Both the position numbers and the translations under genes were made by a program. DNA of 63,133 nt, counting the filler, from Globobulimina sp. (lineage: Eukaryota): assembly GCA_003354225.1 (NCBI GenBank). It is 24 parts of 24 records of this genome, joined end to end, with 100 filler letters (N's around TTAATTAATTAA, not from the genome) between each part and the next. Parts side by side here need not be neighbours in the genome. Positions count along the whole stretch, not along the records: positions 26,363 to 28,897 come from PIVH01006124.1; 23 more parts are not named here. One strand, given 5' to 3'. A model generated the notes under the pieces. The model was not told the DNA's origin and did no database searches. It worked only from the letters and a program-made list of their open reading frames with translations. Positions 26,257-57,331 of this stretch are shown here, piece after piece. Position 1 is the stretch's first letter. Every line of letters starts with the position of its first letter.

Positions 26257-26405
26257 CTTTTTNNNNNNNNNNNNNNNNNNNNNNNNNNNNNNNNNNNNNN
26301 NNNNNNTTAATTAATTAANNNNNNNNNNNNNNNNNNNNNNNNNNNNNNNNNNNNNNNNNNNNTATATTAATAAACGATGAAAACATATACAAAAAAAAAA
26401 AAACA

Positions 26406-28517
26406 TTAAAATTGATTTGGTTGATATTGATTGGATCTTGCTTTTGATGCTTGATACTGTACTCCACGAATTCCCTGATATGGGATTTTTAACTGTTGCT
26501 GCTGTTGTTGTTGATGTTGCTGTTGCTGCTGTTGTTGAATAAAAGGTGGCATTGATACTGGTAATAATTGATTGGATGCAAATATTGGATGATTCATATT
26601 TGGCGGATTGATATAATTTATTTGCGGTGCCAATTTAGGTAATTGTAATTGCGGTAAATGTAATTGAGGGAATTGCGGTAATTGTGGCAATTGTGGCAAT
26701 TGTAATTGTTTTTGTTGTTGTTGTTGTTGGATAATATCTATTTGTTCTTGTTTCTTCTCTGCATAATGCTTACTTAATACTGCCGCCATCATTTCAATTT
26801 TCTTATCTTGTTCTGCCAATTTTTCCTCATACGTATCCGTTAAATGTTTCTCCACGAATTGCCAATAATGTTCAGGTAATAAGTCCGATGCGCCGGGATA
26901 ACGTGGTACTGCTGTTTCTGCTGTTGATGCTCCATTAATATCCGGTCGTTTTCCGGTCGTTTTCCGGTCGTTTTCCGGTCGTTTTCCGATCATATTAACG
27001 GCTGCCTTTTCTGTCTGTCTGTCTGTTGGGGGCGCGGTCGGTGTCGGTGTTGGTGTTGGTGTTGGGGTTCGAGGTGGTGAGGGTGTGGTGACTGACATAT
27101 CTGTTTTTCGCGGTGGTGGCGGTGTAGGTGGCAAAGCGGGGGGTGGTGAGCGATATTTTTGTCTTCTTAACGGTGCCAACGGTGCGCGCGGAGGTGGTGG
27201 TGGCATATTATTTGTATTGCCATTCTCATCCTCATCCATCTTTCTTTCCATCGCATCGATTTCTTTGCTCATTAATGTGCCAATTTTATCCGCTGTCCGC
27301 AATTTTAATATCGACGAATTTCCATCCTTTGCGTATCCATGCCATTGCGAAATATTTCTATGCTCGCTAATACTTAATTTTTCTGTGTCTTTTACTTTGC
27401 TGCCAATATTACGCTCGATTTGGGCGATTCTGGATCCTCGATTTGAATGTGCTGTGTATACAAAAATGTGAATTTGTGCAGTTTACAGGAATAAATATAT
27501 AAAAACTAAACATGTCAGATTTGTTCTGCGGATATTTGTTGTTTCTGGGACTGGAACACCGGCGGCTTTGCAAATAATTTTAATATTGTCTCTAATATGC
27601 TTTTCGCCCAATCTTTGGGCAGAATAAAAATTACCTAATGCGTGATTTGCTTGTTTGCGCCATCTAACTCTTCGCCAATAATGTAATAATGCATAATTCA
27701 ATGGATTATCTTCGTCGATGTCAATAAATTGCTTAAAATCCACTTTTTTAATAACATCAATCTGGACATACACTGCAATGCAACATTTTAAATTCCACGA
27801 ATCGTGATCTTGGCCATCGGGACACTCGCACATAATATAATGTTTTTGGATTAATGCACACGTTTTTGTGCCTCGCGTAGTTATTTCTAATTTCGGGCGC
27901 TGGATTCCATCGACATTGCCATTAATTAATCGGACATCTCCTTCTTTCAATAAATGCACGTTACCGGAACGCAAACCGGTGCCATAATTCACATCATAGC
28001 AATGACGCGTTCTTAATTTTAATCGATCCAACATACCATCCGGTGAATAAACGTTATATTTTCTAATAAGACAGTGATCACTCAATGTCGTCTTTAATGC
28101 GGCTTCATGGTTCATACTGATTTTATATGGACTTGATTTTCTGATTCCAGCCCAGGTACTGTTAAATTGCGGGAAATGTACGATGTCTTTTCCATTTTTG
28201 CCAATTGAATATGATATATATCCATGCGAATGACGTAAATTCGGCTCGACTTGATTTTTCTTTTTGGTATGATGCTGATACATAAATGTTAAAAAACCAG
28301 CTAATTTCTCATCGATTAATAGCATCACAGGAACATAATGATTGATTGTCAGGAATGAAATGGATGGATCACTTGCAGGAACTGGATAAAATGCTATCGC
28401 ATATTTGCTAAAATAACCAGATTGCACTCGATTACGTGCTAATGTTGATTTGGCCCGATCAGATTTCTGGAATGCTTTGGTCATATCTTCTAATGCGTCA
28501 ATTTCTGTTTTGACCAT
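26406..28517 (-). CDS. Crypton-like tyrosine recombinase, about 683 aa, 2 exons (intron 27452-27511), Pro/Gln-rich C-terminal extension
   Basis: GTGLRSG (R), TRGTKT (K), FYSAQRLG..IKIICKAAG; after splicing NLTSHSNR (HxxR) and SEHRN..HGY (H, Y). Confidence 0.85.
26941..26988. repeat. 11-bp tandem repeat (TTTTCCGGTCG) about 4 copies inside the recombinase CDS
   Basis: Read directly. Confidence 0.9.
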
Positions 28518-29138
28518 CTTATGATGATGATGGACAAATGTACAATTTGAATGGATATATAAGTGAACGAATAGTATATAGAAACGTTTACAGGGATGAA
28601 AGAGAAATGTGTGGAGTTTAGTGTTGTTAGTTAAGTAAAAAAACAGTAAAAACAGTACTTTATCATAATTTACTGTTATCCATGGAAGCCAACTGTTAAG
28701 TATTTAAATATCTAAAATTCAAGTCACAAACATACAATAACACAGTATACACAAAATAAACACAAAATAAAAATAAAGAACACTATAGAAACCGCCCGCC
28801 ACCGCCACCGCCACCGTCCACCACCAACACACCACCACCAAGGACACTCACAAACGATTATCAATTAATAACTTGATTGATAGAGTATGGAATTAATNNN
28901 NNNNNNNNNNNNNNNNNNNNNNNNNNNNNNNNNNNNNNNNNTTAATTAATTAANNNNNNNNNNNNNNNNNNNNNNNNNNNNNNNNNNNNNNNNNNNNAAA
29001 ATGGAAAACAAAACATCTGGAAATAAAGAAAAAAAAGAAAAAAAAAGTAACAAAGTGAATATAAAAAGCAAAAAAACAAAAAAGCAATAAAAGATCGCCA
29101 GACAAATATTCGGGAATTAAGAAATCTGTCACCTTTCC

Positions 29139-31437
29139 TTACGCAGTTTCAACGTCACTCTCCTCAAAGGCTACTTTCCGATAGACCAATCCAGTGCGTC
29201 CACATTTTTTCCATAAGAAAACAGACCAGCACAACAAATTGAGGGCTAATAATGCTACGAAGCCACTCAACTCACCACTGCGCTGTGCAATGTCCATAAC
29301 ATTCCAATTCCTTGCCCCTATCCCCAAACCATTGCCAACCTCAGACGTCAGTGTCTCGATCTTAAAATCCACAATGTTACCACTCGGCACATTACCTGTG
29401 GCAAAGCACAAAGGTTGATTAATCATCTGAGAATGCGACCCTTTCGCTTCATACACTGCAACCACGCCATCAATAATCACCAGAGCGTTACTCTGTGTCA
29501 TGACTAACTCAATATAAAATGTCTGACCATTATTATTAGCATTGATTGGGTACCCATCGATAATGACCCATGAATCAATAGTGGGTTTGAAATATAACCA
29601 CTCATTCCCTCTGTCATATCTGAGCGTCATTTCATTCCCTGAACCTGCGCCGATATCGAATATATGCAAATAATTAATTTGCTCCCAGTCATTCACAGTC
29701 AACTCAAATGAAATCTTAAAAGAATCGCCCACACTCACCGACCTGGGACAATTGCCGTTCGAAAACGTGATTTGTTCTGGTGCCACGTCGGTCTCGATCT
29801 TAAAATCCACAATGTCACCACTCGGTACAACACCTGTGGCAAAACACAAAGGCTCATTAGTCATCTGAGAATGCGACCCTTTCGCTTCCGACACTACAGT
29901 TACACCGTCAATAATCACCACCGCGAGACTCTGTGTCATGACTAACTCAATATTCAATGTCTGACCATTATTATTAGCATTGATTGCATAACCATCGATC
30001 AACACCCACGAATCAATAGTTGGTTTGAAATATAACCGATCATTCCCTCTGTCATATCTGAACGCCATTTCATTCCCTGAACCTGCGCCGATATCGAATA
30101 TATGCAAATAACTATTTTGCTCCCAGTCATCCACAGTTAACTCAAACGAAATGTTAAAAGAATCGCCCACACTCACCGACATGGGACAATAGCCGTTCGA
30201 AGGGACAATAGTCGTCGGTAGCTCTTCTGTCCAATCGGTATCTGAAAAAGTTTTGGAATTTTTGAAGTTCACTCAACTAAAAAAACTTTCAAGTCACTTA
30301 ACTGTAAAAAACTTTTCCTGCCACAACAGTTCTCCTTTCTGCCAACTTGTCATGGTATTTGACCTTGAAATTATCACTCCATACATCCAATTCAGTCAGC
30401 ATCTCTGCTTGATTTGTACACAAGTCCGCACCATTAGTTTTTTGAGCAACAATCGCGCTGTGGTATTCTGCGTAAATGGACGCTCTTGCGTTTTCAATCC
30501 AAATCGCGAAGTCTTCAAATACATCCATCACTGATGAAATCTCATTCATAAAACCTGCTTCAGAGACAGTTTCGCGCATAACTACTAAATGTGCAATGGC
30601 TGTAACCTCAAAGAGCGGAAGCGTTGCAACCCAGACGGCTATCTTGTTTTGATACGAAATCTCCAAATCATCTGATCCAGTAAACATCAGAGGCATATTT
30701 GAAATAAAAGCATTATATGCAAATCCGACTTTAGTTTCGAGCAGTGCTGTGTCTTCTGCAGGCACATCCTCGATGTCTTCCATTACATTGGCTATCGAGG
30801 TCAAAAGGAGGCATGTTTGAGTGGTATCATAGGTTATGATCGCTTGACTAATACACGCTGCCACGTTCGCAAATGCTGCATTGATCTGATCGATCAGATT
30901 ATTCGCGAAATTCTCCTGCGCTTGCAACTCATATATACTAGACATCACACTGAACATAGGACCAACGTAGTCGAGAGAACTTAACAAAGCCATGTTTACT
31001 GCGTCAATGTATTGTTCAGCGCTAGTTTCGACAGATTCTAATCCTCCGAGAGTGCAGGTCTGTTCTGGTTCAGCGATCTCAGCAAAAACACAAACGTCTG
31101 GGCATGGGTCAGTCCGTGCCGCAGTCGTGTAACCATTACAATCCCCACCCCCTTGCATGCAGGTTAGATAGTTCGGCTGTGGGTTCTGACAACAGCCGCT
31201 ATTGGTATCAACGCACGGTCCCTGGTCTGTATACCCAGCACAAGAATATACACCGAAGAAGCTAGATTTATGACAATAACACGCTTGCCCACTTGATGGC
31301 ATATCGCCTGAATTGATTTTACAGCCGCTATTACCGCTGGAATAATAGTCACAACCACAACCCGCATGACAGCACACGGCATAAAATACTGCGTAAGCTA
31401 ATGCATAGATGATAACTTGGGCGGAAATACGAGCCAT
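29139..31437 (-). CDS. Type I membrane protein: signal peptide, 11-Cys module, Cry/Endotoxin_N-like helical domain, 2x ConA/LamG-like repeats, TM; 2 exons (intron 30242-30302)
   Basis: ATG 31437 with hydrophobic leader; a GTTAAGT..TTTTCAG phase-1 intron fuses ORFs 30298-31500 and 29139-30272; LPLFEVTAIAHLVVMRE motif; C-terminal TM plus short acidic tail. Confidence 0.7.
29353..30201. repeat. Intragenic direct repeat of about 410 bp (29353-29763 / 29791-30201, period 438)
   Basis: Near-identical DNA copies encoding two beta-rich domains (SVGDSF.ISFELTV.DWEQ..YLHIFDIG...DFKIET). Confidence 0.93.
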
Positions 31438-55518: not shown

Positions 55519-57331
55519 ATGTTGTCTCGTTTGGGTCGTTTTTGTAACAGCACAGCAGTTAAATCCACACATTCCACATGGAACGTATCCAAAGCTACTT
55601 TCGCGATTCTCAAATCGCCAGTAGGTCCTGGCGCTCCTGAAATTCGGAAAGTCGATGATTCTTCAGCTTCTTATAAAGTCAATCCAGTCCCAAAAGTTAA
55701 ATTATTACACTACCTGTGATTATAAATTCCATTTCTACCATATATCCCGCAATTATTCCAAGGCAAAAACGCAATTATTTATGAATGGAGAATTCATCGA
55801 TTCCTCCACCGACCAATATATCAAGGTATTAAACCCCGCCACACAGGAAATTGTGACGCAAGTTCCAGAAATAACGCAAGACGAATTTGACTTAGCTGTG
55901 TCCACTGCCAAGGCGGCACAGAAAGAATGGGCCGCCGTGCCAGTCTCCGTCCGGCAGAGATATATGATGGACTACGTGCGGCTAATTCGCGAGAATATGA
56001 CCGAGTTGGCCGCGTCCATCACCTTAGAACATGGCAAGAACACCACAGACGCGCTAGGCGATGTGTTTCGGGGCTTGGAAATTGTAGAAACGAGTTGCAA
56101 TGTCGCCACGTCAATGTTGGGTGACACGATGCGAAACGTTGCCAAAGGCATCGACACTTATTCATATATGGAGCCCTTAGGCGTGACGGCCGGTATTTGT
56201 CCGTTCAACTTCCCTGCAATGATCCCATTGTGGATGTATCCACTCTCAATTGCTTGCGGCAACTCCTGTATTATGAAGCCATCGTCGCGCACACCGACCA
56301 CATTGATGTTATTGATCGAATTGTTGCAGACAGCGGGTGTGCCCAAAGGCGTTGTCAACGTGGTCCATGGCAGCAGAAAGTGCGTGGATAAGATCTGCGA
56401 CCATCCGGACATCAAATCCGTCTCTTTCGTCGGCAGTAACCCCGCCGGCGAGTATATTCACCAAAGAGCTACGTCGATGAACAAACGGGCGCAGTGCAAT
56501 ATGGGTGCCAAGAACCATGGCACGGTGCTACCGGACTGCGACAAGACAGCGACTATCAATGCGTTATGCGGCGCTGCCTTTGGTTCTACAGGTAATTGAT
56601 ACGGTGATTCGCACCGTACGCAATTGCGATGTGTTAAGGTGTGCACACTGTGATATCACTGATATGTATACATAGGACAAAGATGCATGGCGTTGCCTGT
56701 GGTGTTATTGGTGGGCGAGTCTGGGGATTGGGTCGATGATTTTGTGGCAGTGGCGAAGAAATTTAAAGTGAATGCTGGACACGAAGCGAATACTGACGTG
56801 GCTCCAATGTGCACAGTGTCGGCCAAGGAGTTCGTGGAAGGCTGTATTCAATCTGCGGTCGATGAGGGCGCCAATGTTGTGTTGGATGGAAGGAATTATT
56901 TTGTTGAGGACTATCCAAAGGGAAACTTCATTGGTCCTACGATTATTACTGATGTTGAGCCTGGGATGAGATGCTATGATGAGGAGATATTTGGGCCGGT
57001 GTTGTTGTTTAAGAAATGTAGAGATTTGGACGAAGCGATAGCGATTTCCAATGCAAATGAATGGGGGAATGGCGCTGCGATATTTACAAATAATGGTGCT
57101 GCGGCACGCAAGTTTGAACATGAATGTGATTCTGGACAGATTGGCATTAATTTACCCATTCCGGTGCCATTGCCAATGTTTTCATTTACCGGAGGCAAGA
57201 ATTCGTATCGTGGAGCACAGAAATTTTATGGCAAATGTGGTGTGGAATTCTATACCAATATAAAAACGATCACTTCCAATTGGAAATTTAATCAAGCAAA
57301 TGCAAGTTGTGCGTTCCCAAGATCTAGCTAA
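55519..57331 (+). CDS. ALDH6A1: Methylmalonate-semialdehyde dehydrogenase (acylating), mitochondrial-type leader, 3 exons (introns 55696-55762, 56592-56675)
   Basis: [21 protein letters not shown], spliced [29 protein letters not shown]. Confidence 0.96.

Follow-up and report, generated by a model that had tools for sequence, protein, structure and literature searches.

The window is a stretch of 63,133 nucleotides, filler included, from Globobulimina sp. (GCA_003354225.1), made up of 24 contigs of ~2.5 kb each, linked by N44-TTAATTAATTAA-N44. One of these contigs (PIVH01006124.1) carries on its minus strand a two-exon gene for a predicted tyrosine recombinase, with 380 nt of sequence ahead of the ATG and 43 nt beyond the stop codon. 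The locus comprises the following features:

26363-28897: contig with the gene, 2535 bases; the gene lies on the minus strand
26406..28517, minus strand: complete coding region of the gene, intron included, from the ATG (28517-28515) to the stop codon TAA (26408-26406)
28518..28621, minus strand: probable 5' UTR, covered by spliced contigs upstream of the ATG
27512..28517, minus strand: exon 1, residues 1-335 and base 1 of codon 336; encodes the N-terminal helical domain and the start of the catalytic domain, including R183 and K218
27969..27971, minus strand: codon of R183 (GLRSGN), the first catalytic arginine
27864..27866, minus strand: codon of K218 (TKT), the beta-hairpin lysine, nearly invariant in an alignment of 20 family members (A1)
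27783..27830, minus strand: C230-x-C232...H238...C245 cluster, invariant in alignment A2; a strand-helix loop in the model
27452..27511, minus strand: intron of 60 nt, GT..AG (GTTTAG...ACACAG), phase 1, 75% A+T
26406..27451, minus strand: exon 2, with HSNR, the EH...Y motif, the low-complexity tail and the stop codon
27438..27449, minus strand: codons of H337-S-N-R340 (HxxR), the first full codons of exon 2
27333..27362, minus strand: EHRNISQWHGY, from H366 (27360-27362) to Y375 (27333-27335), the second histidine and the nucleophile tyrosine
26409..27332, minus strand: C-terminal tail of 308 aa, Pro-rich, with a predicted helical stretch and then Gln/Pro repeats
26941-26988: perfect tandem repeat within the tail, 11 nt x4.4

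In the unspliced sequence, the minus-strand frame that begins with the ATG at 28517 ends at a TAA inside the intron (27485-27483), and a second frame in the same register spans 27482 to 26406. Excision of 27452-27511 yields a CDS of 2052 nt and a product of 683 aa that contains ...RRTNLT-S-HSNRGS... and ...SEHRNISQWHGY... The preliminary description of this locus had predicted that removal of these bases fuses the two ORFs in frame and creates NLTSHSNR and SEHRNISQWHGY, and this is confirmed.

Is the intron spliced? Four public runs from one sample and one study (X1-X4) bear on this question. In X2, X3 and X4, assembled contigs of 1603, 1595 and 533 nt, respectively, lack precisely 27452-27511, a segment that ends CT..AC on the plus strand, and a 1326-nt contig of X1 retains the intron with 0 differences. 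The junction check suggested along with the original gene model came out in its favor, with the joined form in X2-X4 and unspliced DNA in X1. The spliced form has a depth of 14-32 across the three runs. The spliced contigs reach 28613, 28617 and 28621 on the 5' side, meaning that they begin ~100 nt upstream of the ATG, and their sole reading frame is the recombinase gene; they differ from the genome at five positions, three of which are synonymous. Further upstream, 28658-28742 and 28828-28897 are not covered by X2-X4 contigs, an observation that was not used as evidence. Because the kind of run is not on record, X2-X4 are presumed to be cDNA. The locus is best explained as a eukaryotic nuclear gene that has two exons and is expressed.

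The intron is also visible in relatives of the protein. A HMMER search of 1.84e9 representatives found 26 matches at E ≤ 1e-3, 13 of them at E ≤ 1e-10. The relatives are only 33-47% identical to the protein, a level that fits old paralogues and old transposon lineages equally well. Eleven relatives reach the junction; seven of these stop 1-27 residues past the [F/P]T codon and three are uninterrupted, and three more fragments start immediately ahead of HSxR. The same intron position breaks at least seven family members, and two different intron positions occur across the family. One uninterrupted relative, P0021 (...KKNFTGHSGR...), aligns without gaps to the spliced reading at the junction.

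The protein belongs to a small, very divergent tyrosine recombinase family that is missed by standard profile libraries. Pfam searches with the read-through protein (703 aa) and with both exons gave nothing at E ≤ 1 but noise (DHC, E 0.06-0.3). Phage_integrase (PF00589) matched neither the read-through protein nor the exons at E ≤ 1, and it matched none of the 20 family members. The search against DUF3504 profiles, which had been suggested as a check on a Crypton assignment, was likewise negative for this protein; one of the 20 members of A1, P0001, matches DUF3504 (PF12012) with E 0.005 and 17.3 bits, below the cut-off of 29.7. A grouping with phage or bacterial integrases would have refuted the preliminary description, and by sequence there is no such grouping: none of nine family proteins matches the integrase models of NCBIfam or PHROGs, and this protein matches nothing in NCBIfam at E ≤ 1 and only two unnamed families in PHROGs (E 0.024 and 0.22). 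Searches of PDB sequences with phmmer and with the family profile returned no recombinase, only low-complexity or mevalonate kinase noise. A word-indexed protein search returned nothing for exon 1 and only P0023 for the family alignment, even at E ≤ 10, and single family proteins had no match in JGI metagenomes. As a lead only, exon 1 on its own falls closest, by its language-model features, to eukaryotic clusters (scores 0.93-0.97) in which part of the members have DUF3504 (17% and 94%), Phage_integrase (52%) or DUF3435 (93%, score 0.93); the nearest cluster is partly diatom.

The predicted fold identifies the protein as a tyrosine recombinase. The AlphaFold2 model has a pLDDT of 80.1, and its only long low-confidence stretch, residues 328-358, spans the translated intron (336-355) and a few flanking residues. 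Foldseek found 47 matches in the PDB at E ≤ 1e-3, the best being Cre (E 1e-7), and all listed matches at this threshold are tyrosine recombinases or the Crypton-derived QRICH1. With VIA, Cre aligns over 243 residues (Z 13.3), QRICH1 (9hjt_H) over 147 (Z 10.5, rmsd 4.2) and XerH over 133 (Z 9.4, rmsd 3.0), and topoisomerase IB scores Z 8-9; the structural matches after Cre are Xer, IntI, QRICH1/DUF3504 and topoisomerase IB. Similarly, a separate model of the relative P0012 matches Cre (Z 12.9) and XerD (Z 9.9, rmsd 2.9). The identity given in the preliminary description is supported by this Cre-like fold. On the best explanation of the gene, the protein has the two-domain layout of Cre, in which a helical domain at the N-terminus clamps the DNA and the C-terminal domain is catalytic.

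The catalytic set R, K, HxxR, H, Y is complete and in order, with the expected spacing, including nine residues from H366 to Y375. R183 is kept in every A1 row that covers the position, and R183 and N186 are invariant in A2. Where the seven-residue active site normally has its acidic residue, this protein has Asn (N186), at the position of Cre E176. In local hhalign comparisons, R183 and K218 pair with Cre R173 and K201 (probability 1.8%, E 0.027), and HSNR...EH...Y is in register with lambda Int H308, R311, H333 and Y342 (probability 0.18%, E 0.33; not significant); these Cre and lambda Int residues are catalytic positions of the two enzymes. In a structure comparison, the P0012 equivalent of the HxxR histidine is the final residue aligned to XerD, at 245. 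Since the residue alignments to Cre and lambda Int are statistically weak, the catalytic assignment draws jointly on the fold, the register of the motifs and their conservation. Eight A1 rows extend through HxxR-H-Y, and seven of them (the window protein, P0012, P0015, P0016, P0017, P0018 and P0021) keep the His and the Tyr, with Arg or Lys-Arg at the HxxR arginine; the exception is P0023. The earlier proposal of an intron-split tyrosine recombinase with HxxR and the catalytic Tyr in exon 2 was borne out, with R183, K218, H337, R340, H366 and Y375 all located. Outside the catalytic set, the Cys/His cluster formed by C230, C232, H238 and C245 could possibly be a zinc site.

The final 283 aa of the tail are 16% Pro and 15% Gln. 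The tail had been called unusual, and this holds for its sequence: a comparison with the tails of relatives found no similarity, the sole match being spurious (E 4.3). It does not hold for its type, which is typical for the family because P0012 and P0016-P0018 have Pro/Gln-rich tails too.

What kind of gene is this? The gene combines a recombinase-only architecture with an intron and with diverged paralogues that keep the catalytic residues, so we favor, with moderate confidence, the view that it serves a Crypton-type DNA element as its recombinase or has recently been derived from such an element. The term "Crypton" fits only operationally, for a eukaryotic gene that encodes a recombinase alone and has no reverse transcriptase close to it; indeed, there is no reverse-transcriptase-sized frame on the 2535-base contig or in the spliced contigs. 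The preliminary label "Crypton-like" stands insofar as the gene is intron-split and recombinase-only with a full catalytic set, and falls short in that the protein has no DUF3504 match. The motif Y..Q.LG..K.IC..AG..T.HS.R, which the same description linked to Cryptons, is present in the sequence, and GCR1_C, a CryptonF feature, has no Pfam match in the 703-aa read-through protein. Crypton DNA transposons are mobile units present as more than one insertion, and their defined ends have short direct repeats of 4-6 bp on either side. On this contig, no terminal repeats are convincing: there are 13 direct-repeat families and seven inverted pairs, all low-complexity or short and chance-like. Kojima and Jurka 2011 distinguish CryptonF, S, A and I, and their Table 1 lists only fungi, animals and stramenopiles as hosts (PMC3212892); Goodwin et al. 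2003 is a further reference on Cryptons. Excerpts of the literature on Crypton tyrosine recombinases and Rhizaria describe no such element for Rhizaria.

Beyond the gene model, splice, fold, catalytic motifs and family demonstrated above, enzymatic activity, mobility and mechanism can be proposed by analogy with known tyrosine recombinases. Four recombinase subunits would assemble on paired DNA sites. By attacking the scissile phosphate, Tyr375 would become joined to the DNA through a 3'-phosphotyrosyl link, with R183, K218, H337, R340 and H366 activating the phosphate and the leaving group, and strand exchange would proceed via a Holliday junction. A Crypton-type element would leave as a circle, then return to the DNA by recombining at a short stretch of matching sequence.

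The strongest alternative, which we consider doubtful but deserving of weight, is a domesticated or never-mobile host recombinase. This would be a stable nuclear gene family that puts recombinase chemistry, or only the DNA binding that goes with it, to work for the cell, for instance in chromatin regulation or in programmed DNA rearrangement. Several observations point this way: the intron position common to diverged paralogues, the depth of the spliced form in three runs, the long low-complexity tail, the synonymous majority among the differences between spliced contigs and genome, and the copy number. In X1, the recombinase core lies under a single contig of flat depth with no other contig at ≥90% identity, and the window's other 23 contigs hold no second copy. 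There is also precedent, since animals have repeatedly domesticated Crypton recombinases (PMC3212892). However, introns and very low copy numbers have also been described for Cryptons (PMC3212892, PMC13465315), so neither trait can separate the two readings. In addition, domesticated DUF3504 proteins usually lose R-H-R-Y, as described in the same two papers, whereas all of these residues are kept here and in seven of the eight covering family sequences. A related idea, that this is an active host recombinase family rather than a transposon, used by the protist in programmed DNA rearrangement or nuclear-cycle DNA resolution, seems quite unlikely; such a family would be marked by the Cys2-His-Cys insert and the Pro/Gln tails, and would put active Cre-type chemistry to a cellular use in a eukaryote.

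It is highly unlikely that the gene encodes the integrase of an endogenous viral element, such as a virophage, a polinton-like virus or a fragment of a giant virus. Tyrosine recombinases do act as integrases in some virophages and polinton-like viruses (PMC12220804), and the contig is short, with the neighboring genes outside it. Against this, introns occur at two distinct positions in the family, the Pro/Gln tails are host-style, and fold matches in BFVD are generic phage integrases that are weaker than Cre (best E 1.6e-5). A scan of IMG/VR gave nine pattern matches and left only one tblastn match, judged to be chance because it is 29 residues long and on the strand opposite to phage structural genes. 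Still less probable is a DIRS-, Ngaro- or VIPER-type retrotransposon with this gene as its recombinase ORF. Tyrosine recombinases are encoded by these eukaryotic elements too (PMC13465315), but within the contig no frame for reverse transcriptase or RNase H lies over the gene or next to it, the spliced contigs start ~100 nt ahead of the ATG and contain this frame alone, and Pfam assigns the protein no domain of the reverse transcriptase, RNase H or methyltransferase kind. Finally, a chance motif or assembly artefact with no true gene or intron is a negligible prospect with nothing in its favor, given the exact GT..AG skip in contigs from three runs, the 13 relatives at E ≤ 1e-10 and the confident model with a recombinase fold.

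What are the implications of these findings? Active tyrosine recombinases are rare in eukaryotes, with a patchy distribution. First, the gene adds a further, very divergent eukaryotic tyrosine recombinase family that went undetected by standard profile libraries. The family is recognizable only once the intron is removed, and ORF-based annotation therefore cuts every member short of its HxxR-H-Y half. Second, the splice-confirmed full-length sequence can serve as the seed for a family profile. Third, the protein is a candidate enzyme for biochemistry. Fourth, the family is a test case for whether such genes are mobile or host-adopted.

Comparison with known systems places the protein among several groups of recombinases. 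Cre of phage P1 is the best structural match, across both domains, with R183 and K218 aligned to R173 and K201. Unlike Cre, Xer and IntI, to which its identity is 10-13%, the protein is not matched by bacterial or phage family models, its gene is eukaryotic and contains an intron, and it has a long tail as well as an additional Cys/His insert. The recombinases of DIRS, Ngaro and VIPER elements and the "Captain" of Starships (DUF3435) are, like the proposed element's recombinase, eukaryotic mobile-element tyrosine recombinases, and a DUF3435 cluster is among the language-model neighbors. Starships are giant fungal elements with cargo. This gene differs from DIRS, Ngaro and VIPER in that reverse transcriptase and RNase H are absent from its contig, and from Captain in that the protein does not match Pfam DUF3435. 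QRICH1, ZMYM2-4 and KCTD1 are domesticated Crypton recombinases (DUF3504). The catalytic-domain fold matches that of QRICH1, and the relative P0001 touches PF12012 below the cut-off. DUF3504 proteins mostly lack R-H-R-Y (PMC3212892), whereas this family retains it. The protein departs from a domesticated DUF3504 gene on two counts, having no PF12012 match and intact catalytic residues. Among the Cryptons, DUF3504 marks CryptonA, and DUF3435-like sequence marks the fungal elements. The protein differs from these in having no detectable DUF3504 or DUF3435 sequence match, and in its Cys-x-Cys...His...Cys insert, its Asn at the acidic active-site position and its 308-aa Pro/Gln tail. It resembles CryptonS in being without GCR1_C and in having a nearest language-model cluster that is partly diatom. 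Like Crypton DNA transposons in general, the locus is a eukaryotic gene for a tyrosine recombinase alone, with a full catalytic set, an intron and a low copy number.

The recombinase gene lies on the minus strand of a 2535-base contig (26363-28897; G+C 37.5%), where a reading-frame scan finds two open frames in the same register. The features are as follows:

First frame: ATG at 28517 to TAA at 27485-27483, minus strand
Second open frame, same register: 27482 to the stop at 26408-26406, minus strand
Intron, 60 bases: 27511 to 27452, minus strand, GTTTAG...ACACAG, A+T 75%
Catalytic set, spliced numbering: R183 (GLRSGN), K218 (TKT), H337-S-N-R340, H366 and Y375 (EHRNISQWHGY)

Excision of 27511-27452 gives a 2052-nt coding sequence for 683 amino acids, reading ...RRTNLT-S-HSNRGS.... 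The intron is in phase 1, and the codon that it splits directly precedes the His of HxxR. As the preliminary description had proposed, HxxR and the catalytic Tyr are complete only in the spliced product, and the removal of 27452-27511 is borne out by contigs assembled from public sequencing runs. The joined form, running from 26959 to 27451 and then from 27512, is present in contigs of runs X2 (1603 nt), X3 (1595 nt) and X4 (533 nt), which lack exactly 60 bases with the ends CT..AC on the plus strand and extend on their 5' side to 28613-28621. A 1326-nt contig of run X1 spans 27014-28339 with no differences and keeps the intron; the joined form was not found in X1. All four runs come from one sample in one study, with the kind of library unrecorded, and we infer that X1 is DNA and X2-X4 are cDNA. 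Were X2-X4 DNA after all, the loss of exactly a GT..AG 60-mer from one copy, with a conserved motif restored, would still indicate the same splice. Nor is this short intron the only one of its style in the window: an aldehyde dehydrogenase gene (55625-57328, plus strand) has an 84-nt GT..AG intron at 56592-56675, and its end, TATACATAG, is similar to that of the recombinase intron, TATACACAG. Separately, a perfect 11-nt tandem repeat (4.4 copies, 26941-26988) lies within the coding tail of the recombinase. Gain or loss of one unit would change the frame, and all X2-X4 contigs break there.

Is the intron peculiar to this gene? A HMMER search over 1.84 billion representative proteins (cut-off E<=1e-3) returned 26 hits, 13 of them at E<=1e-10 and four at E<=1e-30. 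One, P0025, is a repetitive bacterial protein and was treated as spurious. The family alignment comprises the window protein and 19 of the 26 hits; P0025 and the short pieces P0013, P0014, P0019, P0020, P0022 and P0026 were left out. Identity to the window protein is 18-47% across the aligned relatives and 33-47% for the closer ones (P0001-P0003, P0006, P0008-P0010 and P0016-P0018). Eleven relatives reach the splice junction. Seven (P0001, P0002, P0003, P0008, P0009, P0010 and P0024) end 1 to 27 residues past the [F/P]T codon, as if an ORF caller had read into an intron at the junction; indeed, P0001 continues with CLVFI and P0010 with CLV, the same reading as in the window. In P0012, P0015 and P0021 the sequence continues across the junction, as in ...KKNFTGHSGR..., and aligns without a gap to the spliced form of the window protein; P0023 diverges there. 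Fragments P0016-P0018 begin shortly before HSxR and contain the C-terminal motifs and Pro/Gln-rich tails. Thus, the intron position is common to diverged paralogues. A second break point, preceding a CxC motif, is found in P0005, P0007 and P0011 and is absent from the window gene; it indicates that part of the family may have another intron position, without a counterpart here. These three fragments end ...HVNVQ... or ...VSVHQ..., shortly before CxC. P0015, P0017 and P0018 share the C-terminal sequence RH[R/K/H]PY, which is similar to nuclear import signals of the PY type. The C-terminus of the window protein is different.

Profile libraries say little about this family. Pfam gave no real match for the read-through protein, exon 1 or exon 2. 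The DUF3504 or Crypton profile match sought for the window protein did not materialize, and only the relative P0001 touched DUF3504 (E 0.005, below threshold). Nine family proteins matched no integrase family in NCBIfam or PHROGs, so the protein does not group by sequence with bacterial or phage integrases. Searched against PDB sequences, the family profile did not retrieve a recombinase. By the language-model features of its exon 1, taken alone, the protein falls near eukaryotic clusters in which part of the members have DUF3504, Phage_integrase or DUF3435, which is a lead only.

The predicted fold is more informative. An AlphaFold2 model of read-through residues 1-420, built from the family alignment with X at the intron stop, has a mean pLDDT of 80.1 and one long disordered stretch (328-358), which is the translated intron (336-355) plus a few residues on each side. 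Foldseek gave 47 PDB matches at E<=1e-3, led by Cre (1e-7) and followed by IntI, XerH, XerA, QRICH1 and the Tn1549 integrase. VIA-align ranked Cre first (Z 13.3, 243 residues aligned over both domains, the large rmsd reflecting domain orientation), then QRICH1 (Z 10.5, rmsd 4.2, 147 aligned), XerH (Z 9.4, rmsd 3.0, 133 aligned), topoisomerase IB, Ndc10 and Flp. The model of the naturally uninterrupted P0012 (pLDDT 67 as a whole and 78-94 over most of its catalytic domain) matched Cre at Z 12.9 and XerD at Z 9.9 (rmsd 2.9); its last residue aligned to XerD, 355, is the His of an H-S-T-K-R motif, opposite XerD 245. The predicted structure is thus clearly that of a tyrosine recombinase where sequence libraries are blind.

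Conservation points the same way. R183 is kept in all family sequences covering it, K218 is nearly invariant, and the C-terminal His and Tyr are kept in seven of eight sequences covering the motifs (five with HxxR, two with HxxKR); P0023 has lost this region. Profile alignment to Cre pairs R183 with R173, N186 with E176 and K218 with K201 (probability 1.8%, E 0.027), and when the C-terminal part is aligned locally to lambda Int, the best solution pairs the two His, Arg and Tyr with H308, H333, R311 and Y342 (probability 0.18%, E 0.33). Neither alignment is significant alone, and both serve only to show register. Family-specific features are the Asn (N186) in place of the acidic active-site residue, a YWRR/YFRR motif, a long low-complexity tail and an invariant C230-x-C232...H238...C245 cluster, which lies in a loop of the model and may be a zinc site. 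By analogy with the standard tyrosine-recombinase cycle, the two domains would clamp DNA, a tetrameric synapse would form, Tyr375 would attack as nucleophile to give a 3'-phosphotyrosine, and a Holliday-junction intermediate would follow.

What kind of gene is this? As described in two papers (PMC3212892; PMC13465315), "Crypton" is an operational term for eukaryotic DNA transposons with a tyrosine recombinase, which are not monophyletic, have flanking direct repeats of 4-6 bp, are often low-copy and often have introns. The gene here encodes a recombinase only, within the 2535-base contig, and Pfam finds neither an RT nor a GCR1_C domain in the protein. What defines a Crypton is mobility with defined ends. 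The contig extends only 43 nt past the stop codon and 380 nt upstream of the ATG, and no terminal repeats are visible on it. No second copy was found in the window, and at >=90% identity only one X1 contig covers the core. Just upstream of the spliced contigs' end, 28631-28777 is matched by a 367-nt X1 contig (depth 28, eight mismatches) whose other 218 nt are unrelated. Depth over the recombinase gene is 5-8, and this segment looks like a separate low-copy repeat adjoining the promoter region.

The 63-kb window consists of 24 contigs of 2532-2537 bases, sorted by length and joined by N44-TTAATTAATTAA-N44 linkers that carry stops in six frames. The genes on either side of the recombinase in the window are thus no neighbors of it in the genome, and the adjacency of features across N runs means nothing biologically. 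Among the remaining contigs are some with ordinary eukaryotic genes, including those for tubulin, mTOR, SRP54, an aldehyde dehydrogenase and a papain-type protease. The next contig has a 377-aa ORF (29142-30272, minus strand) with about 150 aa internally duplicated and no Pfam match.

On balance, we lean slightly toward an element of the Crypton type, or something recently derived from such an element. The catalytic set kept across diverged members argues for active enzymes, unlike DUF3504-type domestication. It does not distinguish an active host recombinase from a low-copy transposon. A host recombinase is rather unlikely. An integrase of a viral element is improbable, with no support from the IMG/VR scan or from BFVD, where the fold search matched integrases only, and more weakly. 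A DIRS-type element is very improbable: there is no RT-sized frame on the contig, and no RT domain in the protein by Pfam.

No element like this Crypton-type candidate is described for Rhizaria in the papers searched. In fold and chemistry this is a textbook enzyme. The profile libraries lack its family, which has an insert and a tail of its own.
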